Positions 8,925 through 64,000 of a DNA stretch of 64,000 nt are shown here, piece by piece. This stretch comes from Candidatus Babeliales bacterium (lineage in GTDB: Bacteria > Babelota > Babeliae > Babelales > JANWKD01): NCBI GenBank assembly GCA_963722255.1, contig CAVRJO010000002.1, positions 352,001 to 416,000 of the forward strand, read 5' to 3'. Both the position numbers and the translations under genes were made by a program. Every line of letters begins with the position of its first letter. Positions within the stretch are counted from its first letter, which is position 1. The notes beneath the pieces were generated by a model. It saw nothing but the letters and a program-made list of their open reading frames with translations. It searched no databases and was not told where the DNA came from.

Positions 8925-11618
8925 CTAGAAATCATGTGACATACTTAAATGTACCTGACTTGCCGATTCATTTTTTCTGCGATCAAGCTTAAAACCCCAA
9001 TCTATTTTTACCGGAGTTGGTCTTAATAAACGAACACCAAATCCAACTGACTGACGATAATTAAAACCATTGTTTCTTAAGCGCTTTTTTCCAATTAGAT
9101 TAGCATTAGGTGTATCCCAACCGGCACCACCATCATAAAATAAAACACCTTTAATTGAAAAATCAGGAGCTACAGGAAAAATAAGTTCACTATTTATCCA
9201 AAATGCTTTTTTAGCACCTATAGAATCCCCTCTAAATGTTGGCCCAATTTCTCCAAAGAGAAATCCCCTTACGCTGGCAGGTCCACCAATATGATAGAGT
9301 TCTCTAAATGGAATTACCTTACCATCAAAGTTATTAACAACGCCAAAGTGCGTATGCAAATAGAAAACAAGATCTCGTTCGCCAATTAATGGAGTAAAAT
9401 AACTTGCATCAAAATCTATTTTCCAAAATCCGAAATTGTAGCGTGAAGCATTTGGGCTTGTTGCAAGATTAAATTGTCCATTACTTGGAAAAGCAACACG
9501 AGCTTGTCCTAACCATTGATATCCCCTGCTTGGATGCATAGGATGATTTCTGAAATCTTGGCTTGCTTGTGCCGCAGTCCACACATAACTACCATTTGGA
9601 AATCGTCTTTGAAGGATCATATTAAATTCATTAAACTGCTTGTCATCAGGAAATAATGCTCTATCCCCAACTGGCGCATTATGATAATGCAACCCTTCAA
9701 TTCCAAACATAGCTACAAATTTTGTTTGATTAAGATTTTGCGCAACAAATCCTAAACTTAATGCACCATTAACCAACTGCTCTTTAACTTCATCGGTGGT
9801 TAATTTAAAATCTTCATACACCGATTTTTTAATTGCAATATCAAAAGCAGCAAAAATAGGCCGATCAAAGAGCCATGGTTCAGTAAGGTTAAAAAGCAAC
9901 TGCCTTTCTTGTTTTGAAAATTCACCACTTAAGTTAAATCCAATCCCCAACCCTAAAAGATTGGTATCTGAAATAGATCCACCGATTCTTAATGATTCTG
10001 TTGGGTTTTGTAGATCTTTTGGTGAACCCCCGAAGCCAAGTTGTGCATCAACACGACCCGTTTTTACTTCTCGAACGAAAAGTTCTAGATCGGCAATATC
10101 TCTACTTACTCTTTTAATTTTCCAGCTCACTCCATTTTGTTCATCAAAAAAGCCCAATTGTTCGATTTTAAATTTAGATGCTTCTAATCTTTGGGTAGTA
10201 AGCAAATCTCCCTCATCGAATAATAGCTGACGGCGGATAATTTTTTGCCTGGTCTTTTCATTTCCTCGAATTTCAATTTTTCTAACACTTATTTTATCAC
10301 CAAGCTCAATAAAGAAATTTAGCTTTACCGTTTTTGTTTCATCATCAGGCTCCGGTGCAGGATCAACGTCGGCATAAATATATCCAAATTCTCCTAAAAT
10401 GGTTCGTAAAATCTCGATTGAATCGCGTATTTTATCTTTTGAATACAAATCTCCAACACGTATTGGTAACCGCTCTTCTAATTGCTGTTGGGAAATAATA
10501 TCATTGCCGGGAACTTTTATGTCGCTTATTCTATAAATATCCCCTTCTACAATGTGGAAAGTAATTCGTAAAACTGTTGGATCATTAGGATCAGGATCAA
10601 TATCTACTTTGGTTACTTTTGCATTTAAATAACCATTGCTCTGATAAAAATTCTCTAGGGTATGACGATCAGCTTCGATGGCTTCAGGTTGATAACTTCC
10701 TGATCGATCCATAAATCCTAGAATCCAATCCTCACGAGTAAAAATAAGTGAACGCAACTGTTTTGCAGGAAATGCCTTATTACCTTCAAAAAAAACTCTT
10801 TGAATCTGGGTTTTTTTATTTTCATCAATGGTAAATAGTGCAATTACTTTATCGCTCTTTTCATCATCTTGTAAGGAAGCCTTAATTTCTACGTTGTGAT
10901 AATCTTTTTCGCGATATAGTTTTTTCAAAGCAATGACATATTTTTTTAGATCATTTTCATCAAGTGCTGGTTTTTCATTAAAATTTATTTTTTTTCTAAT
11001 GTCTTTTTCAGTTAAGTGCTTATTTCCTTTAAAAGCTACATCTTTTAGCAGTTTTTTTTCTTGAACAATGATATAAAGATCAATCAGATTTTTACCAACT
11101 AGCTCAGCTTTTAGTTCAACATTATTGAAATAACCCATATCAAATATGTTAGAGATAAGAATCTTAGATTTCAAAGGCGTAAAAATCTCATTAATGTGAT
11201 AAGGAATTTTAGTTAAAATAGCATCCAGAGGTACATTTTTATTACCTTGCACATACATAGCACGAATTCTTCTTTGATCATTAAAAGAATCTTCTTCATT
11301 ACTATATTCATTACCTTCAGCAACTTCCTCATTGATTTCAAAAGGTCTATCATCGGAAATAGGAGATTTATCCCCAACTTCGGGAACAATCGCTATATCT
11401 TCCTCAGGATAGGTATCTACAATAGATCCACTTGGGACTTGAATCAATTCATGATTATCTGGTTCAAATGCTACCGGATCATGCAATAACATATCCGAGG
11501 TTTCTGAATATAGATCTTTTAGTTCTCCTGATTGCTCGGCCATTATAGTGAATGAACAGAGCAACATAACTAATAATTTGATTGGCAATGATGTCATACC
11601 GCAACGCTCCCGCAACAT
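8925..11618 (-). CDS. bamA: Outer membrane protein assembly factor BamA
   Basis: Signal peptide, POTRA repeats (GN...; GYF; GNEKTRQKIIRRQL), VRGF motif, C-terminal Phe. Confidence 0.95.
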   Translation of the reverse strand: MLRERCGMTSLPIKLLVMLLCSFTIMAEQSGELKDLYSETSDMLLHDPVAFEPDNHELIQVPSGSIVDTYPEEDIAIVPEVGDKSPISDDRPFEINEEVAEGNEYSNEEDSFNDQRRIRAMYVQGNKNVPLDAILTKIPYHINEIFTPLKSKILISNIFDMGYFNNVELKAELVGKNLIDLYIIVQEKKLLKDVAFKGNKHLTEKDIRKKINFNEKPALDENDLKKYVIALKKLYREKDYHNVEIKASLQDDEKSDKVIALFTIDENKKTQIQRVFFEGNKAFPAKQLRSLIFTREDWILGFMDRSGSYQPEAIEADRHTLENFYQSNGYLNAKVTKVDIDPDPNDPTVLRITFHIVEGDIYRISDIKVPGNDIISQQQLEERLPIRVGDLYSKDKIRDSIEILRTILGEFGYIYADVDPAPEPDDETKTVKLNFFIELGDKISVRKIEIRGNEKTRQKIIRRQLLFDEGDLLTTQRLEASKFKIEQLGFFDEQNGVSWKIKRVSRDIADLELFVREVKTGRVDAQLGFGGSPKDLQNPTESLRIGGSISDTNLLGLGIGFNLSGEFSKQERQLLFNLTEPWLFDRPIFAAFDIAIKKSVYEDFKLTTDEVKEQLVNGALSLGFVAQNLNQTKFVAMFGIEGLHYHNAPVGDRALFPDDKQFNEFNMILQRRFPNGSYVWTAAQASQDFRNHPMHPSRGYQWLGQARVAFPSNGQFNLATSPNASRYNFGFWKIDFDASYFTPLIGERDLVFYLHTHFGVVNNFDGKVIPFRELYHIGGPASVRGFLFGEIGPTFRGDSIGAKKAFWINSELIFPVAPDFSIKGVLFYDGGAGWDTPNANLIGKKRLRNNGFNYRQSVGFGVRLLRPTPVKIDWGFKLDRRKNESASQVHLSMSHDF

Positions 11619-24300: not shown

Positions 24301-25942
24301 CTTTCCAAACCTTTTCACCAGCATCCTCAACATCACCAGCCCAGCCAACAACATTTTTAGTAACATCAATCCATAGATCGCCAAAAAATCCCTGAACCTT
24401 TACTTGAGGATTTTCAATCTTTTTTTGATTTTGCATTACCGCATCAAATAACGCCTTTGCAGTTTGCTTTTTTGAGGTCCCTCCAGGCCCTAGAGCCATA
24501 GGCGTTTTTGTCTCTACCGTTGTTTGTTTAAATGAATCATGCACCAAATTTAAATCTTCAAGATACAAATAGTCCTCAGGAGCATACAAAAAAATTGACG
24601 GATGTGGCTGAACAATCGATTTATTTGCTAAAACATTCATCGTCGTTTCAAGATGCTTAGAGTCATAAAGATAGTTTGTTAAAGCATGAAGAATTTTAAT
24701 CATGCTTAAAAGTAATAACTCTTCTTGTAATAAAGGTTCTTGTTTAAACTTTTCATCATTAAGAGGAACTTTGATTGGATCTTTATTTTGTGCTACTGAA
24801 GCATATACTGCTGATTGATCTTCAAGCGCATAAGAAGCTAACGAATAAAAAGGCGTCTTTTGAAAATCGAGCGATGCAGTATATATTTTTTTTATATCAT
24901 CAAGCTTTTGCCATTCATCACACTGTGGAACATATCGATTACGTAAAGCATCGGTTAAAATCAAGGTTATATGAAACATTTCAGATGCATTACGCAACGA
25001 GGTAAAATCCGGTGTATAATAAGCAATCTCTATATTAGGAATATACTTAAAAATCGTTTCTTCGACCTGCTTAATTGAAAGCAGAAGCTGCTGATCTTGT
25101 ACAAAAGAACGAGTAATAGTATATTTCACATATTTTTGCCAAAAACTTGATCGGGTTAAACTTTGATTACTTATCTTATTAAGACTTGTCCAAAATGAGG
25201 TTGTAACTAAATCTTGCCATGACGAAGCTTTAATTAATCCTTGAATCGCATTCCAATCGGGTTTTACTGACCCATCAAATAACTTTTTTTCAAGCGCTGA
25301 CCATCCACCTGCTTTTCCTTCAACAAGCGTTACCAAATCTTGCCAGGATTTCGTCTCCAATAATGATCTGAAATCTATCCCATTTTGGTGTGCATAATCA
25401 GCAATACGCGCAGCAAATTCTATTTTAACGACGTATTCAAAGTAAAAATAAAAGTTCTTGAAATATTGAATTATCTTTGAATCTACCTTCAATCCTTTAG
25501 CACCAAATAATGCATCAACAGCTGCAGCGTTTTTTGAACTCACTGCATAAGGATTTGGTTTAACAGTCTTTTCATCAATGCGCTCTACCGGATTAAATAA
25601 AACTGCTGCAGTAGCTTGTATGGTTGCAAGCAAATCTTGAGCATGATTTATCGCTTGTAAAGGAGTCATTGCAAATAAATCATAACTTTTGCCATCGGCT
25701 CCCACTATTGAACCAATAAGCTGATCCTGTATACCTTGCGGTTCATGCAATACTTTTTTAACATTTTGAAAAGTTCCATGATCTTTACAAGAAACCGTAT
25801 TAATTTGATCGTCATAAAAACAAGAATCATTACGCAAATATGAAAAATATGAATTAGAGGTATTGACCAATATTTGTTTTGCACTCAATTGCCCAGCATA
25901 AAAGCAAAAAGCCAGAATCACAAAAAAGTAAAACTTTTTCAT
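21317..25942 (-). CDS. Giant (1541 aa) secreted protein: amphipathic/hydrophobic helical core, coiled coil, ConA-like beta-sandwich, low-complexity tail
   Basis: Signal peptide MKKFYFFVILAFCFYAGQLSA; LLLASIPLTGGASVPLIAM; TWYRIKMMLQGTSLQVKVW. Confidence 0.85.
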   Translation of the reverse strand: MKKFYFFVILAFCFYAGQLSAKQILVNTSNSYFSYLRNDSCFYDDQINTVSCKDHGTFQNVKKVLHEPQGIQDQLIGSIVGADGKSYDLFAMTPLQAINHAQDLLATIQATAAVLFNPVERIDEKTVKPNPYAVSSKNAAAVDALFGAKGLKVDSKIIQYFKNFYFYFEYVVKIEFAARIADYAHQNGIDFRSLLETKSWQDLVTLVEGKAGGWSALEKKLFDGSVKPDWNAIQGLIKASSWQDLVTTSFWTSLNKISNQSLTRSSFWQKYVKYTITRSFVQDQQLLLSIKQVEETIFKYIPNIEIAYYTPDFTSLRNASEMFHITLILTDALRNRYVPQCDEWQKLDDIKKIYTASLDFQKTPFYSLASYALEDQSAVYASVAQNKDPIKVPLNDEKFKQEPLLQEELLLLSMIKILHALTNYLYDSKHLETTMNVLANKSIVQPHPSIFLYAPEDYLYLEDLNLVHDSFKQTTVETKTPMALGPGGTSKKQTAKALFDAVMQNQKKIENPQVKVQGFFGDLWIDVTKNVVGWAGDVEDAGEKVWKDVEKTGKDFIDFATDAGEAIAEEAESLGFGVGAVFLSGLNPGLAKKLLDKSLALQKEVADHVENAKQELEKTVVDVENVSKDSLDVLGTVMEGVCDMTLANKDTEICKSLRGAFESAFEIIIDQIAGNLLSYISFTGGMIKLTVEGIRLISTQAAFIATKNATYEADILDQLEQFGADAAVAILEPLTFQFQYFMKSLGDVLRFCQYFISVITRIFIDVTTAITYAIGATIGNFANLFGANISASEWADAVDTALTEHERLIGTAITTGLLLASIPLTGGASVPLIAMTVGPQIFAAYGSWQADEEAIKQKKEEKEFVESFSSFVSTNSLIYQQQQNEWLGELQLKYTSELENQERNLGFYENFLANNFEALKEQYAEALGSYWSQLLSPDPSYYNLTPADVGAIYGFSSGVYELNPSQGFSLYSAARKSFSQEIAVLPELAIKTDEKVVKKVETKNWFNQKEVMILDKPVNEVEIRFQAIYLLNSFYIGLYFGGQDINLADFKTHQAETNKPQKAPLDLGQLAKMAVFKREETDGAVSFGVYEHEGKGWLTQSANAPKFQLGTWYRIKMMLQGTSLQVKVWQEPDTEPSTALIFTCSAPSPSQKVVGVISSGASIEYQFVPQIVPTIPTPKIRPEGKRCTLPCDFTNFESLQKEVDRENEARPILDYLMNPVIGKTKLNAVGRMQILRGQYIYNTDKTKLAIDGKVVEDYVVPCKTESFEETIDIVSGSIGSRPEESSYLVSLISESLFDSDMQYANVKASNIYETYVKQSGPLSTALEQKIDELRKKYFSQSTAFTLGAFSLQVNKDALQKQKNLYTAPMRDAKGIIKDQKGQPIQDYFLLTVIAPDKQGYAKTAGNPGITYSDMLTHDRDSIGITSLVSGNLYGSKVHTNYKTDYLWSRFDPDNTLPEVWKAIVQSQDAYKAVIQPSGGPSDTPDTSSSTKKTTDKDIASKTENKGSGSGKSLPPDSPANKSEQKQSEAASGGEYSFGGPT

Positions 25943-27738
25943 TGCTTTTCCTCCAAATCAGTTGATGGCAAAACGAGTTTTTCAGGTTTTATTATTTTAA
26001 ATTCTGCTTGTGCTCCAGGAGCCATAAAACCAATTCCTCCAAACAGGGCAATTGTAGAATCTAAGTTACTGAATGTTTTTTGGATAAGTTGTTCTTTTCC
26101 TTTTTTTGAAACAGTTACTGTAACAGTTTCAGGAGATGTTGTTATATCAAAAATGAAAGTAATTGAATCTTTCGCTAAGAGATCAGTATCATTTTTTGAA
26201 AGTGTGTAAAGTATATGATCATCAGTAGGTTTTGCTCGTGTTATTTGCTCTAAGGGAGAAATAATATTTTCTTTCTCTTTTTCAAAAGTTATTATCTGTT
26301 GGGCAAAACCAAGATTAATAGATCTCGTTGCAGGATCCTTATCATTAGTTTGTGTACCATAGAATCCAACTAATCGATACTGCCATAACCGTTCAGGATC
26401 TCCGGATATCCAACGACCTCTATTAAAAAATATCCCAACAAAAAAAGGATATGAACAATTAAGCAGTGTGCATTCAATAGAAACTTCGTAGGATTTTTCA
26501 TTACTTATATATTCAGTAAAAATACTATTTCTTGAAGGATCTGTAGGATAAACCTCTTCTTTTTCTCCCGGCTTTTGGAGCTTTCTAAAATCTTGTTGCC
26601 AAAAAGGCATGCCAAAAGGAACTAATCCATTTTGGAAAAAGCTCTTAGTTTTTGGATCAAATTCCCAATCGCCCTGTTGATAGATATTATACCACTGTTG
26701 TCTTTTCGGCGTATTCATGATGCTTGCTTCAAACATCTGATCGTAAGGAATAGGCGGCCAGGATAACATATGGATAGCAGGGTCACTTAAATTAATTGAT
26801 TTAAAAAGATATATTTGTTCTTGAACTGCAGCATCACTAGCCTTTTTGCGCTCATCATATATCTTTTGCAGGCCTGTTTTAAATCCATTGAAAATTTGTT
26901 GAATAAGATTTTTTTTTATAGCTTGTAATTGATTTACAAAGACTTCAAAACGTGTCTCAATCTCACCTTGCTTTTTTTGATACTCTTCAAATATCTTGCC
27001 ATCTTCTTCAACAAGCCACTGAATATACATTCCATTACCACCCATCATAAAGGACTGTAATGCTAACATAAAAAGCTCTGATATAAATTGTATGGTTGCT
27101 TCCGGTGTTATACTTTTTGCTCGAGTTACCAGTTCAGCCTGCACTGCGCGCTTTTACCAAAAATTTATACTATCTGGTAAATGGGAAGACTTACTTGTAG
27201 TAAGCAAAACAATAAATTTCAAAAGATTTTGATAATTAAACAAAATATTTTCACGCTCAAAATTGCAGTAATCAACTATTCTATCTGCTAATGATTCTTC
27301 CCAACAAACTTTTTTAGTACCCATTTTTTTTATATAACAACTTAATTTTTTAAAAGTTTTCTCAAACCGAAACTCCAATCGTTCATAAAACGTCATAGTA
27401 CGCGCTATCTGTTTTTTATAATTTTTTAAATAGCGTATTTGATGATCTAAAATAAAATTTTTAAAATGTGCTTTTGCATTGTGTGCATTATTCTCAACTA
27501 AGAGTTGAAGTTGCGGAACTACTAAATCTATTGCACAAGAGCGCTGGCTTGGTGTCGAAATGCTTAAGTCATTCAAAAGAGTTTCAATCTTTTTTTGTTC
27601 AGCATCTGAAATATGTAAACCACGATTACCGAAGATATTTTCAATAAGTTTTCGATTTTCTGTTATCAAATGAATCTGTTCAGAAGAAAATACAATAGAA
27701 AAAGTCCCGATCACAATAAGAAATAACATCTTCCTCAT
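25939..27738 (-). pseudogene. Probable single ~599-codon secreted protein gene split by one in-frame TAA (27154-27156); alternatively two CDSs (27154-27738 and 25939-27144)
   Basis: TTT TGG TAA AAG CGC GCA GTG CAG keeps both ORFs in one frame; only the first has a signal peptide; 4-bp overlaps with both neighbours. Confidence 0.65.
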
Positions 27739-29345
27739 GATGCACTCCCATCATCTGAAGGTGGAGGTGGTTCAATAACAGGCGGAGGTACAGTTTTTTC
27801 TTGTTCATTTTTTGCAATTTGTTCCTTTATGCCTTTTATAAATGCGTCAGCTGCTTGGCAACTCTTATCATTGGCTGAAACAGAAAGTCCTGCTTTAACT
27901 GCTGTCTTATTGATAATACATTGAATGCAGGGGTCAAGAATTTCCTCATTTTCAAATGCAGGATCTAAAAGTCTAGAAAAATCTCCTAAACATGCTTGTA
28001 ACATTTTAATAATACCCTCTTGAGAATTAAGCCAATCGGGTTGTGGTAACAGTTCTTGCTCATAGATATAATCTTTGGTTGGAATATTAACAAAAAGACG
28101 TTTTATATCTTTGTTATTAACTCTATCATTCTTATAAAAAGCAACGAGTATATCAGTTTGAGGACCATATAACGGTTTATATCTTGTTCTAGCATTAGCA
28201 TCAAAAACTATTTGTGCAGGCCATGGTACATTTTGAACATTTTTTGGCAAAGATTTTGCTAAGGTCGGAATTATCTTGAGCCCGCGCATTGTCTGTTCAT
28301 CATAAAAAAAAATAGGTGGATTTAACTTTGTTAATGAACGCAAAAAAGTAATTTTTTCTTGAGAAACTTGGTTTTTTCCGTCTTTATTTACCATAGTTGG
28401 TATTGAAGAATTTGGTCTATACGCATAATCTTGCATATATTCAGCAATTTTTTTTGCATGTTGGGCAAATTTATTAGCACCAACATAACCTTTGCTTATA
28501 TCTTCTTCATGCAAGGTTTGTGTATATCGATTAAAAAACTTTAAATAATCACTTAATAAATTAAGATAATTGCTTCTAAGAGAGTCAACGTCAGACTTAA
28601 TAATAGTTTGAACTTCAGGATCAGTTACTAAAACCAATTCTGCTTGCTCCATCATAATATTAAGATCAACCCCATAATCATGCTTCATAAGCATGTTTCC
28701 TGCATAAGTCGCTATCAACGGAGGCAATGACGGGAATCGTGCCCTTATTGCTCCATTCAATTGCGCTTCAACAATATTAACGAGATGGTTAATTATTAAT
28801 GTCTTCTGATTAAGACCCTGCTGAATTCCTTCTTGCAAATAACCATCTTTTCTATTTTTTGCTTTATCTTGTCCGGGTAGAAGTGAATCAATATGAGTCA
28901 TATTAAAAACTGCATAAATTTTTGTTAAATAAATGTAGAGTTCATGCAAAACAAGCATATGAATTTTTGTAAAATAGAAGGTAAAATTTTTTGAAACTTC
29001 ATCTTTTGATAAATTAGATAAAAAATTTGAAAAAAGATCACTTAATACTGAATCATCTGGGAAAAGTATTTTTCCACCCGGATGATTTACTTCGGGAGTT
29101 GCAGATTTAATAAAACTTATTAATGTCTGCTTTGCTCCATATTTACAAGCAGCAGGAAGCCGATTTTTTGTTTGCGCATTAGCTACAGTTTTGCCTCTAC
29201 TATTTTTTGGAAACGGATTAAATACTTGATCTTTTGTTAATGGTGAATCTGATCTTACGGCTGAATAAGAGAAATGGATTGAACAATAGAACGATACAAA
29301 ACAAAATAAACTATAAACAACAAAACGAGACGCAAAACGAAACAT
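27735..29345 (-). CDS. Secreted hypothetical protein (536 aa) with Pro-rich C-terminus; first gene of the operon
   Basis: RBS gagg; N-terminal hydrophobic segment; VPPPVIEPPPPS tail. Confidence 0.8.
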   Translation of the reverse strand: MFRFASRFVVYSLFCFVSFYCSIHFSYSAVRSDSPLTKDQVFNPFPKNSRGKTVANAQTKNRLPAACKYGAKQTLISFIKSATPEVNHPGGKILFPDDSVLSDLFSNFLSNLSKDEVSKNFTFYFTKIHMLVLHELYIYLTKIYAVFNMTHIDSLLPGQDKAKNRKDGYLQEGIQQGLNQKTLIINHLVNIVEAQLNGAIRARFPSLPPLIATYAGNMLMKHDYGVDLNIMMEQAELVLVTDPEVQTIIKSDVDSLRSNYLNLLSDYLKFFNRYTQTLHEEDISKGYVGANKFAQHAKKIAEYMQDYAYRPNSSIPTMVNKDGKNQVSQEKITFLRSLTKLNPPIFFYDEQTMRGLKIIPTLAKSLPKNVQNVPWPAQIVFDANARTRYKPLYGPQTDILVAFYKNDRVNNKDIKRLFVNIPTKDYIYEQELLPQPDWLNSQEGIIKMLQACLGDFSRLLDPAFENEEILDPCIQCIINKTAVKAGLSVSANDKSCQAADAFIKGIKEQIAKNEQEKTVPPPVIEPPPPSDDGSAS

Positions 29346-29508: not shown

Positions 29509-30663
29509 TTATTGATAATGAACTCTCTTCATATGCTTCTTTAAACCATCATCATAGAAATAAGATTTTGGACATTCAGAACACTTAAACTCTTTTTCAC
29601 GATTCGGATTATGTACTTGTAAATGTCTTTCAAAATCAGTTCTTTGTACAAAGCGTTTTTTACATGTTGAACAGCAATAAGGTTTTATATTTTCATGCTT
29701 AGATTTACTATGATTAGAGTAACTGTAGAAATTATAAAAACCTCTATTACATATCTCACACCAATGTTTATACTTCTCCCGATGTATTATTTTATGTGCT
29801 TCAAGTTCCTCCTTTTCTTTAAATGTTTCAGTACAATGAGGACATCGATTTGTTTCGTGAACATCTTTTATATGTCTTTCTAAATTTTGCTTATTAGCTA
29901 ATCTCTTACCACATTGTGAACATTTAAATGAAGCAAAAACGTTCCCAGAGCCTTCAATTTCATGAACTTTTTTCATGTGTGTTCTTAAATTTTGCTCATT
30001 TGCCAACCTCTTACCACAGTGTAAACATTTAAATGAACTAAAAGCAGAACCTTTTTTAGTAAATACTTTTTTTATAGGGAGAGTTTTTATATCTTTTTTT
30101 TTGGATTTTAATTTTTCCATACAAACTGCCAAATTGGCAACCGAAGATTTAATAAAGTCTAATTCATACGTAGCTGAATTCAACTCACCATTAATAGCTT
30201 TCAAATAAATATCCAAATGAGATTCAACTTCAGATAATTTCTGTTGTAACTTATCTTTATGTATTTTTATATGATCCATAAGTAAGCCTGGTTCATTAAA
30301 TTTTTCAAAACATCGAGGACATCCAAAACTCTCAAAGCTATCAATCTCCGATTGTTGAAAAAAAGATTGATTATTTATATTAAAACCATGATCAACTTCT
30401 GTAATTCCAATATTCCAATTAGTTATGCTATCTCCGTCTAGTGTCATGTTGAGTGTACTTAGACCCTCGATTTTTTGATCATCCAGCTGATCAAAAAATC
30501 GAGTAGACCCTAAAAAGGCTTCAGATTCATTATCAGAAAATCCATCGTCAGAGAAAAATGAAAAAGCAGATGGCAATGGAGCAAATAAATCAAAGGGATT
30601 ATCTTTATGCATTCCAAAAAGAGTTGTTGTAGAAAAAATTAATACGAAAAACAAGTAGTTCAT
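29509..30663 (-). CDS. Secreted protein with seven C2H2 zinc fingers
   Basis: Signal peptide MNYLFFVLIFSTTTLFG|M; seven Cx2Cx12Hx3-4H motifs. Confidence 0.92.
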   Translation of the reverse strand: MNYLFFVLIFSTTTLFGMHKDNPFDLFAPLPSAFSFFSDDGFSDNESEAFLGSTRFFDQLDDQKIEGLSTLNMTLDGDSITNWNIGITEVDHGFNINNQSFFQQSEIDSFESFGCPRCFEKFNEPGLLMDHIKIHKDKLQQKLSEVESHLDIYLKAINGELNSATYELDFIKSSVANLAVCMEKLKSKKKDIKTLPIKKVFTKKGSAFSSFKCLHCGKRLANEQNLRTHMKKVHEIEGSGNVFASFKCSQCGKRLANKQNLERHIKDVHETNRCPHCTETFKEKEELEAHKIIHREKYKHWCEICNRGFYNFYSYSNHSKSKHENIKPYCCSTCKKRFVQRTDFERHLQVHNPNREKEFKCSECPKSYFYDDGLKKHMKRVHYQ

Positions 30664-30857
30664 GGCATTCTTTCAAAAAATAAATAAGGGATGTTAAGAA
30701 AGAGTATCTATTTTTAAAGAAAATTCCAGAATTTCTCTTACTTAAAAGCATTTTTTGAAAGAATACAAAAAACCAATTTTACGAAAACAACAAAAAGAAT
30801 TATACTCAAAAATATATACAAAAAATGTATCTCACGCTAAATGAATGGAAACTATTT

Positions 30858-32063
30858 ATGAATTTTCGTATTACTCATTTTTTATTACTTTTAAGCTTTA
30901 TAGTCACATCCTATTTTAGTTGGAAAGGGTATCACTATTTTTTTGATAAAGAAAATCCAACGATTTCACTGATAGGTATTGAAGATAAGGCATATTATGC
31001 AAATGAGATGCAATGCGTTCTTAACGCACAAGATCGATATAAAGTTTCTGACATTTCAGTATGGCTTGATGGCAAATTACTGATAAATAAATTTAAAATA
31101 AATGCCTGCTCTTGCGAACATCCCTTTTTTATTTCAACAAGAACATTAACAAATGGAAATCACACCTTAAAGGCAGAAGCAGTTAATGGCACCTATAATC
31201 AAGGAAAAACATCAAAAGAGGTTTCTTTTTTTGTAGATAATACACCGTTACAAGCTGCATTCATACGACCTGAAACTGATTATAGGGTATTTCAAGGAAG
31301 AACACTTCATATTCAATTTCAAATGAACAAAGATATTAAATCTGCTCAAGTACAAGCACTATCAAATACGTATCCAGCTTTTCAGGAAGCAAAAAATTCA
31401 CCGATTTACGAATGCTTTATTCCCATTACCTGTGAAGAAACGCCCAATGAATATATAGTGACCGTACATATTGTTGATCACGTCGGCAATAGCCTAGCTC
31501 TTGAAGCAAAATTCCAGGTGGTTGCATTTCAATTCAAAAAACAAAATCTTCATATAGATCCAGCAAAAGCGCAAATGGAAAAGGAAGCGGGCATTGCTGC
31601 AGCACAGTTAGAGAATGATTTAGAACGGTTAGTAAAACTTTCTCCGGAACAAAAATTATGGCAAGGAATTTTTTATCCTCCTATTGATATCAAAGCAATA
31701 ACCACCGAATACGGAACCATTCGAACAACACAAGAACGAGGGCGCTATGCTCATAAAGCCGTAGACGTAATTAATACACCAAAATCGGTTGTTTGGGCAA
31801 CGCAGGATGGTATTATAGTCATTAAAAATCGTTATGCACATAGCGGAAATACTGTTGTTATTGATCATGGCTATGGAATTTTTTCACTTTTTTATCACCT
31901 TGATTCTTTTGCAGATATCAAGGTTGGTGACAAAATTAAGCGTGGAAATCCAATTGGTACATTAGGCAAAACCGGTTATGCAACGGGAGATCATTTACAT
32001 TGGGAGATGAGAATTAATAATATACCTGTAGATCCAATGCAATGGATAAAGCATAATTTTTAA
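30858..32063 (+). CDS. M23 family metallopeptidase with N-terminal membrane anchor and Ig-like domains
   Basis: HKAVD (HxxxD), GNTVVIDHG, YHL, TGYATGDHLHWE, VDP. Confidence 0.92.
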   Translation: MNFRITHFLLLLSFIVTSYFSWKGYHYFFDKENPTISLIGIEDKAYYANEMQCVLNAQDRYKVSDISVWLDGKLLINKFKINACSCEHPFFISTRTLTNGNHTLKAEAVNGTYNQGKTSKEVSFFVDNTPLQAAFIRPETDYRVFQGRTLHIQFQMNKDIKSAQVQALSNTYPAFQEAKNSPIYECFIPITCEETPNEYIVTVHIVDHVGNSLALEAKFQVVAFQFKKQNLHIDPAKAQMEKEAGIAAAQLENDLERLVKLSPEQKLWQGIFYPPIDIKAITTEYGTIRTTQERGRYAHKAVDVINTPKSVVWATQDGIIVIKNRYAHSGNTVVIDHGYGIFSLFYHLDSFADIKVGDKIKRGNPIGTLGKTGYATGDHLHWEMRINNIPVDPMQWIKHNF

Positions 32064-41909: not shown

Positions 41910-43436
41910 ATGCGCTTTTCAGCAATTTTTTTGTATTTTTTATTGCTAACGACAAACTCTATTTTATCAACGACCTATAAACTTACTCATCCAAGTCAAA
42001 CACCATGGCCGGGTTTTTTTAGTGTTTTTAATACCGTCTTAGGAGCACTCGAGTTTTATGAAAATAGCGATGATGCCGATGGTTTTATTGTTGATTTTGA
42101 AAAATCAGGTTTCTTTTATGATCCAAATTTTGGAGAAAATTGGTGGGAATATTATTTTGAACCAATCAAACTCGGTACGCCCAATATCAATGAGATAATA
42201 TTCAAAGAATATAAAAAAATTACTTTTAGTTTTTCTGCGCAACTTAAAATGTCTCGAGAAAGAAGCTATGAGCTTATTAATAACTACATAAAACTTAAAC
42301 CACATATACAAAATAAACTTGATGCATTTGTTAAAGAACATTTTGAAGGAGAAACTGTTATCGGCCTTCATTATCGAGGAACCGATAAAATTCTTGAAGC
42401 ACCAAAAATCAATTATGAGCTAGTAGGGAAACTCTTATCAAAAGAAATTGAAAATGATAATTCCATTAAAATTTTTGTAGCCACCGATGAGGATTCCTTT
42501 TTGCAGTATATGTATAAAAAGTTTCCGGGAAGGATTATCGCTTTAGATGCCATTCGTTCAAAAAATGATATACCGGTACATAAAATTATGACAGAAAGTC
42601 CTTACCAAAAAGGAGAAGATGCATTACTCGATTGTTTATTACTTTCAAAATGCTCAAAAATTTATAAAACTGCTTCAAATCTCAGCGATGTTTCAATAAA
42701 ATTTAATCCAACCATGCCTGTAATTAACATAAGCGAGCATTTTACTGAGAAAAAATCTTATAGTAGATATAATTTTTTTAAAGTATTGGATACTATTTTA
42801 ATGCTGCTCGATACCTATGAAAAAAACCCCAAAGCAGGATTCACTGCTTATTTGCCAACTAAAGATGCTAACTGGTGGGAATTTCATTTTAAACCCCTCA
42901 TTGTAGGCAATCCTCATCCAAATTTACAACTAGATGACATCGATTTAACTATTTTTGGCTTTACCGGAATCTATGAAATGGACCCCAATAGAGCATATGA
43001 GCTCATAACAAAATATATAGAAATTAAACCTCATGTCATTGATAAAGTTGAGGAACTTTATAACGAAAAATTAAAAAATTCATTTGTAGTAAGCATTTTT
43101 TACATGAAAGGTGAAGGAAATGATTACCAACACTACAATGAAATTATCTTCAGAACACAAAAAATTCTTCGCAATGCGCCTAATAATAATAAGATAGTAG
43201 TTATCACCGATGATAATCTTCTCATACAAGTAATGAGAGAAAAATTTTCAAATATAGTACATCCAGTAAGTCCTAAATGGCAAAATCTTGATGGTGAAGT
43301 AGATCTCCTTTTTTGCCTAATTATGGCAAGAGCAAATTATCTAATTGGCTCTCAATCAGTCTACCTTAAAGTAGTTTCTCAATTTAATCCTTTACTACCG
43401 GTTGTAGCAATTGGAGATTATTGGCTTGAAAAATAA
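41910..43436 (+). CDS. Secreted NodZ/GT23-like fucosyltransferase with tandem duplicated domain
   Basis: GFFS, NWWEYYFEP, IGLHYRGTDK, IFVATD, DCLLLSKC; degenerate second copy. Confidence 0.75.
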   Translation: MRFSAIFLYFLLLTTNSILSTTYKLTHPSQTPWPGFFSVFNTVLGALEFYENSDDADGFIVDFEKSGFFYDPNFGENWWEYYFEPIKLGTPNINEIIFKEYKKITFSFSAQLKMSRERSYELINNYIKLKPHIQNKLDAFVKEHFEGETVIGLHYRGTDKILEAPKINYELVGKLLSKEIENDNSIKIFVATDEDSFLQYMYKKFPGRIIALDAIRSKNDIPVHKIMTESPYQKGEDALLDCLLLSKCSKIYKTASNLSDVSIKFNPTMPVINISEHFTEKKSYSRYNFFKVLDTILMLLDTYEKNPKAGFTAYLPTKDANWWEFHFKPLIVGNPHPNLQLDDIDLTIFGFTGIYEMDPNRAYELITKYIEIKPHVIDKVEELYNEKLKNSFVVSIFYMKGEGNDYQHYNEIIFRTQKILRNAPNNNKIVVITDDNLLIQVMREKFSNIVHPVSPKWQNLDGEVDLLFCLIMARANYLIGSQSVYLKVVSQFNPLLPVVAIGDYWLEK

Positions 43437-60517: not shown

Positions 60518-61912
60518 ATGGCATTACTAAATAACTATTTTAAACGCAATTTTCCTTTTACTCATCCAGATGAACTAACAAAATTTTTCAAAATGGGATT
60601 AATTTTTTGTACCATACTTGCGGCATATTGGACTCTAGGAACCATTAAAGAATCCCTTTTGAGTGATCTTATTGGTAGCTCAATGCTTCCCTATGCAAAG
60701 ATCTTCTCATTACTTTTCTTAGTTCCTGTACTCTTACTCTATTCTCGATTACTTGATCTACTCTCTTGCCAAAAACTTTTTGTACTTATTTCATCATTGT
60801 ACGCATTTATTACACTCATTTTTGCCTATTTAATCGATAGTTCCCTGTTCAATGAAATGAACAGCCCTTCTTTAATGCAAAACTCACATGTACCACTCTA
60901 TGCATCATACATATTCTGTTTTTCATTCTACGCATTTGTTGAAAGTTATGGCTCTCTCTTGGTCGCTTTATTTTGGGCTATTGCAACAAGCACAACCCAA
61001 CCGGAATCAGCAAAAAAAGGATTTCCTCTTATTGTTGGTTTAGGTCAAATAGGTGGCATTTTAGGTCCTCTTGTTTTGAGTAGAATTCCACGTTATTTCC
61101 ATTTAACAACGAGCAGCCTTTCAGTATATATATCAGCTCTACTTATAGTAATTTCTTCTGTTTTATTTTGGTATTTTTTACGTTCTACCCCTTCTATTTT
61201 GCTACAACCATTTCAGGGCTCAGAAAAAAAATTTTCCGATACCAAACAGGTTCCAGGCTTCTTTGAAGGATTGAGCCTCATTATAAAAAACTACTATTTA
61301 ATTGGTATATGGTGCATTATATTTTTTTTTGAATTTATTACTCAACTTTTTGACTATTATTTTAAATGCTTTGCTGCTGAGCAACTTTCAGGATTAGAAC
61401 TTGCTGAGTATATTGGTTTTTATGGCAGCGCAATAAATTTTGTTACATTGCTGTGCTTAGTGCTCGGCATCAATAAAATCAACAATTTTTTTGGTATTAT
61501 ATATTCTCTTTTATTAATCCCCATACTTGTAGGGTTTTCAATTTTTGGTTTTATACTTTATCAAAATAGTACAATCTTGTTTTTCATATTAGTGCTTCTA
61601 AAAGCAGTAAATTTTTCACTCACTATTCCAACAACAAAACAGTTATATATTCCCACAACTCAAGATGTACGTTTCAAGGCTCAAGCATGGATTGATACGT
61701 TCGGCTCACGTACCGCACGACAATGTAGCGGAATCTATGCTATGCTGCTTAATCCTCTACAATTTAAAACATTACAAATTTGTTTTGTATCAACGCTTAT
61801 TCAATTCACCAATTATTTTTGCCTGAGCTTGGTATTTTTTTGGTTTTTTATTGCATTCTATCTTGGTAAAAAACATACCAATGCAATAAAAAACAATACG
61901 ATAATCTGCTAA
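60518..61912 (+). CDS. TLC/NTT family nucleotide transporter (ATP/ADP translocase-like)
   Basis: ~12 TMs; FVESYGSLLVALFW, AKKGFPLI, KAVNFSL..PTTKQLYIPT..DVRFKAQAWIDTFGSR. Confidence 0.88.
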   Translation: MALLNNYFKRNFPFTHPDELTKFFKMGLIFCTILAAYWTLGTIKESLLSDLIGSSMLPYAKIFSLLFLVPVLLLYSRLLDLLSCQKLFVLISSLYAFITLIFAYLIDSSLFNEMNSPSLMQNSHVPLYASYIFCFSFYAFVESYGSLLVALFWAIATSTTQPESAKKGFPLIVGLGQIGGILGPLVLSRIPRYFHLTTSSLSVYISALLIVISSVLFWYFLRSTPSILLQPFQGSEKKFSDTKQVPGFFEGLSLIIKNYYLIGIWCIIFFFEFITQLFDYYFKCFAAEQLSGLELAEYIGFYGSAINFVTLLCLVLGINKINNFFGIIYSLLLIPILVGFSIFGFILYQNSTILFFILVLLKAVNFSLTIPTTKQLYIPTTQDVRFKAQAWIDTFGSRTARQCSGIYAMLLNPLQFKTLQICFVSTLIQFTNYFCLSLVFFWFFIAFYLGKKHTNAIKNNTIIC

Positions 61913-61992
61913 CGATACATAGCCTTGTATCCGCGCTTTAAACGAGTTTAAGCAAAAATCACACTCTTCCTACAGTTCTTCCTCTTCAATCA

Positions 61993-64000
61993 TTATAAAG
62001 GCGGGAATGACAAATTAGAATTTAGATTCGCAAATGGACTCCTTGTATTAGCTTGAAATTGCGTATATATATTTGTTGCAAATACATAATTAAGATCATT
62101 CTGGAACGCAGTATTCTGAATAACAAGATTAGAGCTTGAAGAAGCACTAATCCCTCTTCCGGAAGATACTCCTGCTGTAACGGTTGGTCCCGTTACATTG
62201 CTTACATTGTTTCCCATAATTTGTGTTTTGGAAGGAAAGTTTAATCCTGATAAAACTTCAACTGAAAGCGTTGCTGTGTTTTGGACCCCTCCAATAACAA
62301 CTAAATCTCCTTTTGGGGACCAATCAACATCATCAACTGTTGCACCATGACTATATTCTGAAACAAGAGTTAAAGAAGAACCACTATAACTGACAACTCG
62401 AGTATCAAAACTACTACTTGGTGCACCCCCGATTAAAATATAGTTATTATCGGGAGACCAAGCAACACCTAAAGTGGTTCCGCCCGTTGTAAACGTAGGG
62501 CCTGCGGTTAATGTAGTTCCATTAAATGTATAGACTTGTATTGCAGTACCTGTAGTGGTACCTATTACAATTTTTTGACCATCTGACGACCATCTAATAG
62601 TACCAATCGCTCCAATTGTTGAAGTTGCCGAAGTAAGAACGCTTATTGTTGTACCATTAATTCTCACAATACTTATTAATCCGTTACCTGAAGTTCCTCC
62701 CACAACAAGAAGGCTTGGATTTGTTGGGCACCAATGCACTGCAACTGCAAAAAAAGTAGCTCCGCCTGTATTTGAAGGAAGATTTGCAATTAAAGAGAAG
62801 GGAATTGTTGCATTTGCATTAAATTCATATATTAAAAGTGCACCCGTACAAACAGCAATATATTTACCATTTTGCGACCAACTTACTGCGTTTGGAGCTG
62901 CTAAAACCTCAATATTATTAACGCTATAGCTCGCACCAAACATTCCACCGCTAAAAGAATAAACTGTTATTTTACCACCAGCAACACTATCAACAGCAAC
63001 AAGATAAGCACTATCAGGTGACCATGATATAGCTCTTGCATTAGCTGAGGCATCGACAACACTTGCAGTAACTATTAAAACACCATTTGTTAGCTCATAT
63101 ACCAAAATAGTGCCTAAAGTAGATGTTGCTATGTATCTTCCATCAGGCGACCACGCGATGGAAGTTATTGTTCCGGCTCCCGATATAGAAGGTAAAGATG
63201 AATTACTCAGTGCCGTAAAGGTATACGCCATTTGAATACCAAAGGGCTGCGCATTGGAACTGGTAGAAACATTACTTATTATATTATTTGTTATAATATC
63301 ACGATTTTCACCGGAACCAATAAAAATGGCATTAGCGCTATTGACTGAAGAAGTATCGCTGGTGCTGACATTATTAATGAAACAGTCTGTAAATATATTG
63401 CTCCCTCCATTATTTGCAGTAATGCCAAATATACTACCTGTGGTCGTCGTAGTATTTTTGATGGTACATGCTGATATATTATTAGAAAAACTGCTATTGA
63501 ACTCCATTCCGGCACTTAATGAATTGAAAATTGAACAATTTGATACTTCTCCACCTAGAGCAGCATTTAAAGTCAGAGCTGTTGTATTACCAACAAATTC
63601 TACATCCGTAATTTCAAATGTGGAAATAGGTGAACCAGTCGTTCCATTAAATAAAACACCATGTTGTGAATTTAAGATTGTCGTACCTGATAAATCAATA
63701 TTTGAAGAACCTGCTGCGATGCTAATGCCATTTCCAGTCATGCCACTTAACGACCCATTATTAATAGAGACATTTGATTGACCATTAATTAATATGCCAT
63801 TCACTCCTGTTGTACTATTACTTTGAGTAATGCCATTACATCCTAAATCAAGGGATACATTGCTCGCATTAATGGTTATGGCTGAACTACCCGGCGTTAC
63901 CGGAGCAAAAGAAACATTACTTGCAAGAGTATACGCACCTGCTTGTGCAATAACATAGCCGGAAGTTCCAATTAATGCTGCAGTGATTATAGTTGTTACA
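61993..64000 (-). CDS. Large surface-type protein: right-handed beta-helix with inserted WD40-like propeller (5' end beyond the window)
   Basis: Frame stays open from 63804 to the window end (GYVIAQAGAYTLASNV...AITINASNVSLDL); seven W[S/C]xxx blades such as WSPDG. Confidence 0.85.
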   Translation of the reverse strand, partial: VTTIITAALIGTSGYVIAQAGAYTLASNVSFAPVTPGSSAITINASNVSLDLGCNGITQSNSTTGVNGILINGQSNVSINNGSLSGMTGNGISIAAGSSNIDLSGTTILNSQHGVLFNGTTGSPISTFEITDVEFVGNTTALTLNAALGGEVSNCSIFNSLSAGMEFNSSFSNNISACTIKNTTTTTGSIFGITANNGGSNIFTDCFINNVSTSDTSSVNSANAIFIGSGENRDIITNNIISNVSTSSNAQPFGIQMAYTFTALSNSSLPSISGAGTITSIAWSPDGRYIATSTLGTILVYELTNGVLIVTASVVDASANARAISWSPDSAYLVAVDSVAGGKITVYSFSGGMFGASYSVNNIEVLAAPNAVSWSQNGKYIAVCTGALLIYEFNANATIPFSLIANLPSNTGGATFFAVAVHWCPTNPSLLVVGGTSGNGLISIVRINGTTISVLTSATSTIGAIGTIRWSSDGQKIVIGTTTGTAIQVYTFNGTTLTAGPTFTTGGTTLGVAWSPDNNYILIGGAPSSSFDTRVVSYSGSSLTLVSEYSHGATVDDVDWSPKGDLVVIGGVQNTATLSVEVLSGLNFPSKTQIMGNNVSNVTGPTVTAGVSSGRGISASSSSNLVIQNTAFQNDLNYVFATNIYTQFQANTRSPFANLNSNLSFPPL

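Follow-up and report, generated by a model that had tools for sequence, protein, structure and literature searches.

The gene and its protein

The window analysed here is a stretch of 64,000 nucleotides from a Candidatus Babeliales bacterium (positions 352,001 to 416,000 of contig CAVRJO010000002.1, assembly GCA_963722255.1), and the subject of this report is a gene within it that encodes a protein with seven C2H2 zinc fingers. In a preliminary description, made from the letters of the DNA, this gene had been read as coding for a secreted, Kruppel-like protein laid out like a eukaryotic transcription factor. The claimed open reading frame (ORF) was found to be intact, on the minus strand and with an ATG start. 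Its features are listed below.

29509..30663, minus strand: whole coding sequence (P0001), 384 aa plus stop, ATG start; Pfam zf-C2H2 E=9e-27
30613..30663, minus strand: leader (MNYLFFVLIFSTTTLFG), residues 1-17; putative Sec signal peptide with a signal peptidase I (SPase I) site before M18
30328..30612, minus strand: acidic/aromatic region, residues 18-112, predicted to be disordered; net charge -15, 15% aromatic
30259..30327, minus strand: isolated finger 1, residues 113-135; ligands C115, C118, H131 and H135; predicted local distance difference test (pLDDT) 88-95
30088..30258, minus strand: helical segment, residues 136-192; helices 125-157 and 166-192 in the AlphaFold2 model
30034..30114, minus strand: basic patch (KLKSKKKDIKTLPIKKVFTKK...), residues 184-210, resembling a nuclear localisation signal (NLS) and predicted to be disordered; net charge +9
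29518..30033, minus strand: six tandem C2H2 fingers, residues 211-382, by motif scan, Pfam and pLDDT (83-95)
29853..30043, minus strand: tandem duplication at the DNA level behind fingers 2 and 3; 86-nt copies, 81% identical, 105 nt apart

A Pfam scan had been proposed in the preliminary description, and in it zf-C2H2 (PF00096) matched the 384-aa protein over five stretches with 92.4 bits (cut-off 25.2, E=9e-27), a match far beyond chance; zf-C2H2_4 followed with E=2.3e-26, and 11 Pfam families matched at E<=0.01. When the whole genome was scanned with PF00096 in six frames, three single fingers of the gene passed the cut-off alone. A motif scan identified seven C-X2-4-C-X12-H-X3-5-H motifs, all of them with the expected ligand spacing; the six tandem fingers span C213-H234, C248-H269, C274-H294, C302-H323, C331-H351 and C361-H382. 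All 28 zinc ligands were intact, and the hydrophobic core was filled by F, L or Y in each of the seven fingers (an aromatic residue or Leu at position 4 of the X12 stretch, and Leu, Phe or Tyr at position 10). An AlphaFold2 model of the protein was built from an 18-row alignment (mean pLDDT 67.8, predicted template modelling score 0.33). Every finger in it adopted the strand-strand-helix (beta-beta-alpha) arrangement with pLDDT 83-95, and a Foldseek search with this model returned DNA-bound CTCF, ZFP568, PRDM9 and ZBTB24 as the best solved folds for the array. The earlier count of one isolated and six tandem fingers was therefore borne out by motif scan, Pfam and predicted folds alike. Fingers 2 and 3 were made by a duplication that is still visible in the DNA.

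Origin of the gene

The genome comprises 1,618,240 bases on two contigs and is 93% complete. Its GatB shares 64% identity with the protein of a 'candidate division TM6' genome and 61% with its counterpart in a 'Candidatus Dependentiae' genome; on this basis the source organism is assigned to Dependentiae (TM6). Cultured Dependentiae are described in the accessible text of PMC6561590 as parasites of protists.

The gene lies ca. 380 kb inside a 712,466-base contig, and it has the properties expected of a resident of this genome. Its G+C content (GC) is low, 0.299 versus 0.348 +/- 0.028 for 952 ORFs of at least 200 aa (3.9th percentile), with a value of 0.197 at third codon positions (GC3), and its synonymous codon conformity stands at the 98th percentile of the same ORFs. 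No introns were seen. The neighbours are bacterial, with an M23 peptidase and GatB close by and BamA, CysS and MurJ further out, in agreement with the earlier picture of an intronless, AT-rich gene between bacterial genes. The preliminary description had also allowed for an assembly chimera or eukaryotic contamination, a view to which the best matches outside the genome lend some colour, as they are eukaryotic PRDM5-type proteins (24-34% identical to the array). Against it stand the native codon usage, the Dependentiae-type leader, the lack of introns and the location on a 712-kb contig with conserved bacterial genes on either side, as well as seven other ORFs in the genome with multiple C2H2 motifs and the presence of C2H2 matches in 81 of 261 genomes of the phylum. 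Such an artefact is extremely unlikely, and it is practically certain that this is a real, native gene with seven fingers.

Leader and export

The reading that we favour, with evenly balanced confidence, is that the product may be a Sec-exported, host-directed, nucleic-acid-binding effector of a Dependentiae bacterium. The first element bearing on this reading is the leader, YLFFVLIFSTTTLFG, which has a hydrophobic h-region, G at -1 and L at -3 and is followed by M-H. Leaders were called throughout the genome as a 10-residue uncharged window with a mean hydropathy of at least 2.0, starting within the first 30 residues and with no later membrane-like segment; they were found in 519 of 1468 non-overlapping ORFs of at least 100 aa. 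In 256 of these 519 ORFs a Met occurred no more than 12 residues after the h-region, as compared to 17.8% at 9920 control positions. The residue following that Met was Glu in 91 of the 256 (36%, versus 5.4%), Asn in 9%, Gln in 9% and Asp in 5%. When the leaders were aligned on the inner Met, position -1 was A, S, G, C or T in 75% and position -3 mostly L, I, S, V or A, a genome-wide pattern which is that of a predicted SPase I site ahead of the Met. As a sign of translation starts, a Shine-Dalgarno (SD)-like 4-mer was sought 4-18 nt upstream; it preceded the first start in 144 of the 256 leader genes, the inner Met in 14 of 256, and internal Met codons used as a control in 63 of 600. Since the first starts carry the SD-like motif far more often than the inner Mets do, the leaders of this class are translated, and the mature proteins would begin with the inner Met.

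The protein under study fits this leader class as an unusual member. What had been called its signal peptide is supported by the h-region, the residues at -1 and -3 and the genome-wide leader pattern, but it is weaker than a typical one. Several points weigh against export: residues 1-17 contain no K or R and thus no basic n-region, a trait shared with 16 of the 256 genome leaders; M1 is not preceded by an SD-like 4-mer; the database copy (P0002, 367 aa; an automated gene call) begins at M18; and the leader calls come from a home-made hydropathy rule, not from SignalP. The first three of these would suit a protein that starts at M18 and acts in the cytoplasm as a regulator of the bacterium's own genes, the supposed leader being an untranslated T-rich stretch; prokaryotic zinc-finger regulators do exist (Ros/MucR, cited in the accessible part of PMC12491435). 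However, the -18..-4 stretch before M18 is pyrimidine-rich, the -3 and -1 residues suit a peptidase site, and SD-like motifs precede first starts and not inner Mets genome-wide. Leaders are also present on 44 of 52 array ORFs sampled from relatives, and ROS_MUCR was not among the families matched at E<=0.01. A start at M18 is accordingly held to be improbable, and it is highly probable that the leader is translated and functional.

A profile search of the genome for export genes identified two SPase I genes, two secretins and two GspE/PilB-type ATPases; VirB4 and FHIPEP were not found in this search of a 93% complete genome. Both F-box-like genes carry a leader (2/2, background 519/1468), and the F-box-like family had no match in 14 control genomes. 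F-box domains function only with the eukaryotic ubiquitin machinery, and for this reason some members of the leader class very probably arrive in the cytoplasm of the host. Ankyrin genes carried leaders in 24 of 33 cases versus the same background; the count is based on those 63 of 82 Ank_2 places which exceeded the cut-off alone, two of them outside the ORF set, and several ankyrin genes scored as leader-negative show obvious leaders by eye. The counts agree with those given in the accessible text for the cultured Dependentiae Chromulinavorax, in which signal peptides were assigned to 44% of coding sequences and 78% of ankyrin proteins (Deeg et al. 2019, PMC6561590). Delivery of the zinc-finger protein to the host is, on these grounds of class membership, fairly probable.

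The mature exported proteins of this genome tend to start with Met-Glu, Met-Asn, Met-Gln or Met-Asp straight after the SPase site. One may speculate that a Met followed by an acidic or amide residue might look native or stable in a eukaryotic cytoplasm, in which case this start may be an adaptation to that compartment. Some relatives are without the Met, for example at L108, where ...SLSA is followed directly by LEN.

C2H2 arrays in the genome and in the phylum

Eight ORFs of the same genome contain at least two C2H2 motifs, namely the gene described here and seven others, and most have a similar leader. Clusters of such genes were found as a tandem trio (C2:468595-471630) and a pair (C1:820247-822758).

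A start of the form M(x)NY[FL][FL] was observed in only four of the 1468 ORFs, all of them C2H2 genes: the zinc-finger gene of the window and the tandem trio, which lies ca. 87 kb away. The shared start hints at a common origin of these 5' ends. A 5' module shared with the trio was considered and set aside, as the leader DNA is only 37-49% identical and homology was not shown.

Across the phylum, PF00096 was matched at E<=0.001 in 81 of 261 Dependentiae genomes, compared to one of 14 control genomes. Matches exceeded the Pfam cut-off in 59 of the 261, a match was present in 56 of 189 high-quality genomes, and several of the loci are on contigs of ca. 1 Mb. Relatives were sampled as 20 regions from the top of the PF00096 list and six further loci. 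These 26 loci favour strong canonical fingers, and all shares derived from them are upper estimates. They contained 54 ORFs with at least two fingers, of which 52 were kept after two that were cut at the 5' end had been dropped; a leader was present in 44, and 32 had the inner Met as well. The linkers between fingers were 7 aa long in 228 of 267 cases, and 130 of these 228 were of the canonical [TS]G[ED][KR]P type. To describe the spacer between leader and fingers, six of the 44 leader ORFs with a spacer shorter than 25 aa were dropped. In the remaining 38 the distal spacer was net acidic in 33 and the 25 aa before the first finger were net basic in 25; a cluster of at least four K/R residues occurred in 18, with KKRKR, KRKR and KRQKK as frequent forms. 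The layout of leader, acidic spacer, basic patch and fingers, as judged from these predicted features, recurs across the phylum.

Among 216 unique fingers of C-X2-C-X12-H-X3-H spacing, hardly any variation was seen in the ligands or in the core F and L, and the most variable positions were +3, +6 and -1, through which fingers that read DNA contact the bases. Between the array under study and every sampled array, whether from the phylum or from its own genome, identity is 20-35%, and neither these identities nor those of 24-34% to eukaryotic proteins allow a specific donor lineage to be identified. By sequence, the protein is a divergent member against the phylum background.

Several of the sampled loci are themselves tandem clusters. 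At L103 (G053:C1:232000-243000) eight array genes follow one another, and L106, L108 and L111 are likewise clustered. Each of the clustered genes at these four loci combines a leader, an acidic spacer, a KRQKK or KKRKR patch and 2-12 canonical TGEKP-linked fingers.

Finger type and linkers

The five H-to-C linkers of the array are 13, 4, 7, 6 and 9 aa long. The linkers had been described as TGEKPY-like, a label that was not sustained: ENIKPY and NREKEF match the consensus at only two or three letters, and none of the five fits [TS]G[ED][KR]P. The spacing within the fingers is not uniform either, with H-X4-H in four of the seven and C-X2-C...H-X3-H in three. The term Kruppel-like was thus overstated, because both linkers and finger spacing are atypical. 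In addition, the three fingers that could be scored reached 14.5, 16.0 and 26.0 on the phylum's canonical profile, as compared to a mean of 51.4 (sd 10.0), and the contact positions of finger 4 are acidic (E, E, E, A). Linkers, spacing and finger 4 thus depart from what is usual in sequence-specific readers of DNA, and they weigh, as do the low profile scores, against the favoured reading.

The same irregular linkers, H-X4-H fingers and acidic finger 4 would also be compatible with a role in binding RNA or protein. Under such an explanation the protein would still be exported and host-directed, but its fingers would bind RNA or protein, or DNA non-specifically, and it would be no mimic of a transcription factor. 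A weak Pfam similarity to zf-C2H2_jaz, a double-stranded-RNA-binding type (E=2.6e-5), and to ZNF451-type pairs points in this direction, as does the fusion of the isolated finger to a long helix in the AlphaFold2 model. On the other hand, fingers 2, 3 and 6 carry residues of the N/Q/R type at -1, +3 and +6 and are compatible with base contacts, the best structural matches are DNA-bound arrays, and the fingers of relatives vary as those of DNA-readers do. We consider this alternative unlikely, and favour nucleic acid, most likely DNA, as the candidate ligand of the putative effector.

Acidic region, helical segment and basic patch

The acidic/aromatic character ascribed to residues 18-112 was found as claimed: the region is Phe-rich, with 19% D/E, 15% F/W/Y and a net charge of -15. 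In the AlphaFold2 model pLDDT stays below 50 over residues 2-109. The helix of finger 1 extends into helices 125-157 and 166-192, so that the stretch once termed coiled-coil-like can be called helical, while a coiled coil as such was not shown. The basic patch was likewise present as described, with a net charge of +9 over residues 184-210 and pLDDT below 50 at residues 192-206. Judged by eye it does not fit the strict classical NLS consensus, which counts against the favoured reading.

Residues 18-210 were compared with 1.84 billion representative proteins at E<=0.001. There were 27 matches, one of them the protein itself, and 25 of the 26 others sit on finger 1; the remaining one is weak (P0061, E=2e-4, query 43-85). 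Apart from this marginal match, no relative of the acidic region was detectable among these representatives, and the genome contains no paralogue of the non-finger half. Atlas leads for the N-terminal half were of C2H2 type only, with low counts of shared features.

The coding sequence of the acidic region includes, at 30466-30503 of the window, an inverted repeat with perfectly matching 16-nt arms around a 6-nt loop, possibly by chance. The mature N-terminus, MHKDNPFDLF..., has NPF at residues 22-24 (30592-30600) and is accompanied by several acidic-Phe motifs, which may also be due to chance. Motifs of the NPF and acidic-Phe types are known as ligands of endocytic adaptors.

A gene that is unique to this genome, whose N-terminal half lacks relatives and whose fingers are degenerate compared to the canonical ones of the phylum, might be a young, drifting gene without a fixed function, or its product might be exported only as far as the periplasm or surface and have no host target. 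This is quite improbable, as none of the 28 ligands and no position of the hydrophobic core has been lost, the frame is open and its codon usage well adapted; a fold based on zinc and thiols is, moreover, ill-suited to an oxidising periplasm.

Proposed mode of action

The favoured reading, that of an exported effector, starts from a gene and fingers that are real and native, a leader that belongs to a translated genome-wide class, and a layout that is found phylum-wide. The later steps are drawn from sequence features. Translation would begin at M1, and the 17-residue leader would take the unfolded protein through Sec, with SPase I cutting before M18. The mature protein would then leave the cell by secretin/GspE-type machinery or in vesicles and enter the host cytoplasm, where the fingers would take up zinc and fold. 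The disordered basic patch at residues 184-210 may promote nuclear import. Some of the seven fingers would then contact nucleic acid of the host, probably DNA, and the N-terminal region, which is acidic, rich in Phe and predicted to be disordered, may recruit or titrate host factors. Binding of DNA in the nucleus is put forward only tentatively, and activation of transcription through the acidic region, suggested by its composition only, is judged to be rather unlikely. The finding itself is real; its interpretation is plausible but unproven.

A broader version of this proposal may be considered, though it is somewhat doubtful as a whole. In it, the phylum would deploy a whole set of polydactyl C2H2 proteins, exported through Sec and equipped with an NLS, which address specific host genes by the eukaryotic zinc-finger code. 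Their contact residues would diversify in tandem clusters, forming a bacterial counterpart of TAL effectors made from a borrowed eukaryotic module, and the protein described here would be a recently inserted, divergent member.

Several known systems resemble parts of this picture. The closest in sequence (PRDM5) and in fold (CTCF, ZFP568 and PRDM9) share the tandem beta-beta-alpha fingers. Unlike these eukaryotic polydactyl proteins, the present gene is bacterial, with an export leader, no TGEKP linker and a mixture of H-X3-H and H-X4-H fingers, and the Pfam scan detected no PR/SET, KRAB or BTB partner domain. TAL effectors of Xanthomonas are bacterial DNA-binding effectors with an acidic activation domain, composed of 34-aa repeats and exported by type III secretion. 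They embody the principle proposed here for the zinc-finger protein, namely delivery to the host nucleus of a bacterial protein whose repeats are modular and vary in the residues that contact bases, and which also has an NLS and an acidic region; they differ in using 34-aa repeats and type III export, as opposed to zinc fingers and a Sec-type leader. No TAL family was matched in the Pfam scan of the protein, and FHIPEP, as noted above, was not found in the 93% complete genome. The point concerning NLS and importin for TAL effectors is mentioned in the accessible part of PMC12488382.

The same part of that source presents MoHTR1 and MoHTR2 of Magnaporthe oryzae as secreted C2H2 effectors which act in the nucleus and reprogram transcription in rice (PMC12488382). 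They too combine a signal peptide, a C2H2 finger, a nuclear targeting sequence and an action on host genes, and are likened to the present protein by description; they belong to a eukaryotic pathogen and are small (MoHTR2 has 110 aa and one finger domain), whereas our protein is bacterial and has seven fingers. Ros/MucR proteins, as far as the accessible part of PMC12491435 describes them, share the Cys2His2-type zinc coordination in a bacterium and the DNA binding that is proposed here. They have a single finger within a larger globular domain and are cytoplasmic, in contrast to seven classical fingers with a leader, and an identity with Ros/MucR was rejected for want of a ROS_MUCR match among the 11 Pfam families. 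The eukaryote-like ankyrin and F-box effectors known from Dependentiae and other amoeba-associated bacteria (PMC6561590, accessible text) are represented in the same genome with the same type of leader and a similar lineage-specific expansion and turnover; the module in our protein is of a nucleic-acid-binding type.

In the literature found, zinc fingers are not named among Dependentiae effectors, with subscription papers and the supplements of PMC6561590 lying outside the search. Nor did the literature searched yield a description of tandem classical C2H2 fingers on exported bacterial proteins, and the term 'zinc finger' is absent from a 2024 review on amoeba symbionts. It is known that some bacterial effectors enter the host nucleus and that amoeba parasites carry eukaryote-like repeat proteins. 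What adds to the value of the finding is that zinc-finger array proteins with a leader appear to form a class that extends across the phylum. If host DNA is indeed bound, this would be the second natural example, after TAL effectors, of a modular DNA-recognition code applied by a pathogen to its host. It would also offer a way into the question of how Dependentiae, which have hardly been studied, control their protist hosts, and a case study of a eukaryotic DNA-binding module taken up and diversified in bacteria.

Insertion site and neighbouring genes

The zinc-finger gene is flanked by the following features.

27735..29345, minus strand: conserved leader-bearing neighbour of 536 aa; orthologues 42-54% identical in three relatives
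30664..30824, no strand: intergenic region between this gene and the divergently oriented M23 gene, at the upstream end of the insertion
30825..32063, plus strand: M23 peptidase gene, bounding the insertion on its other side; orthologues 76%, 69% and 67% identical

The three M23 orthologues are from one genome of the same genus and two of the same family. In all three relatives the orthologue of the 536-aa gene adjoins the M23 gene, with gaps of 450, 157 and 137 bp, and the zinc-finger gene is absent; it is a lineage-specific insertion between two genes that are adjacent in relatives. The 450-bp gap of the same-genus genome contains no remnant of it, and no convincing direct or inverted repeats, as signs of a mobile element, were seen at its flanks. 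A promoter scan gave six sites versus 10.1 expected, and no terminator-like site.

Two further points reduce the weight of the effector interpretation. No orthologue of the gene was found even in the same genus, and conservation therefore gives no argument for function; in addition, the search of sequencing runs found no RNA run for this genome. One DNA run contained 5% of the sampled words, and it yielded a single 151-nt metagenome contig that matches 30693-30843, covering intergenic DNA and the start of the M23 gene.

Further along the minus strand, at 25939-27738 of the window, ORFs of 401 and 194 aa share one frame and are separated by a single TAA; three relatives have a single protein of 597-612 aa at this place. 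The split is one of three things: a nonsense-split gene, a sequencing error or a case of read-through. Together, the genes of 1541, 597 and 536 aa make up a conserved block to which no Pfam family could be assigned.

Other parts of the window (60518-63804 and 41910-43436) encode a TLC-type ATP/ADP transporter, a WD40/beta-helix protein and a NodZ-like protein of the fucosyltransferase family. The transporter is typical of energy parasites, and the three proteins fit a host-dependent lifestyle with eukaryote-like proteins.

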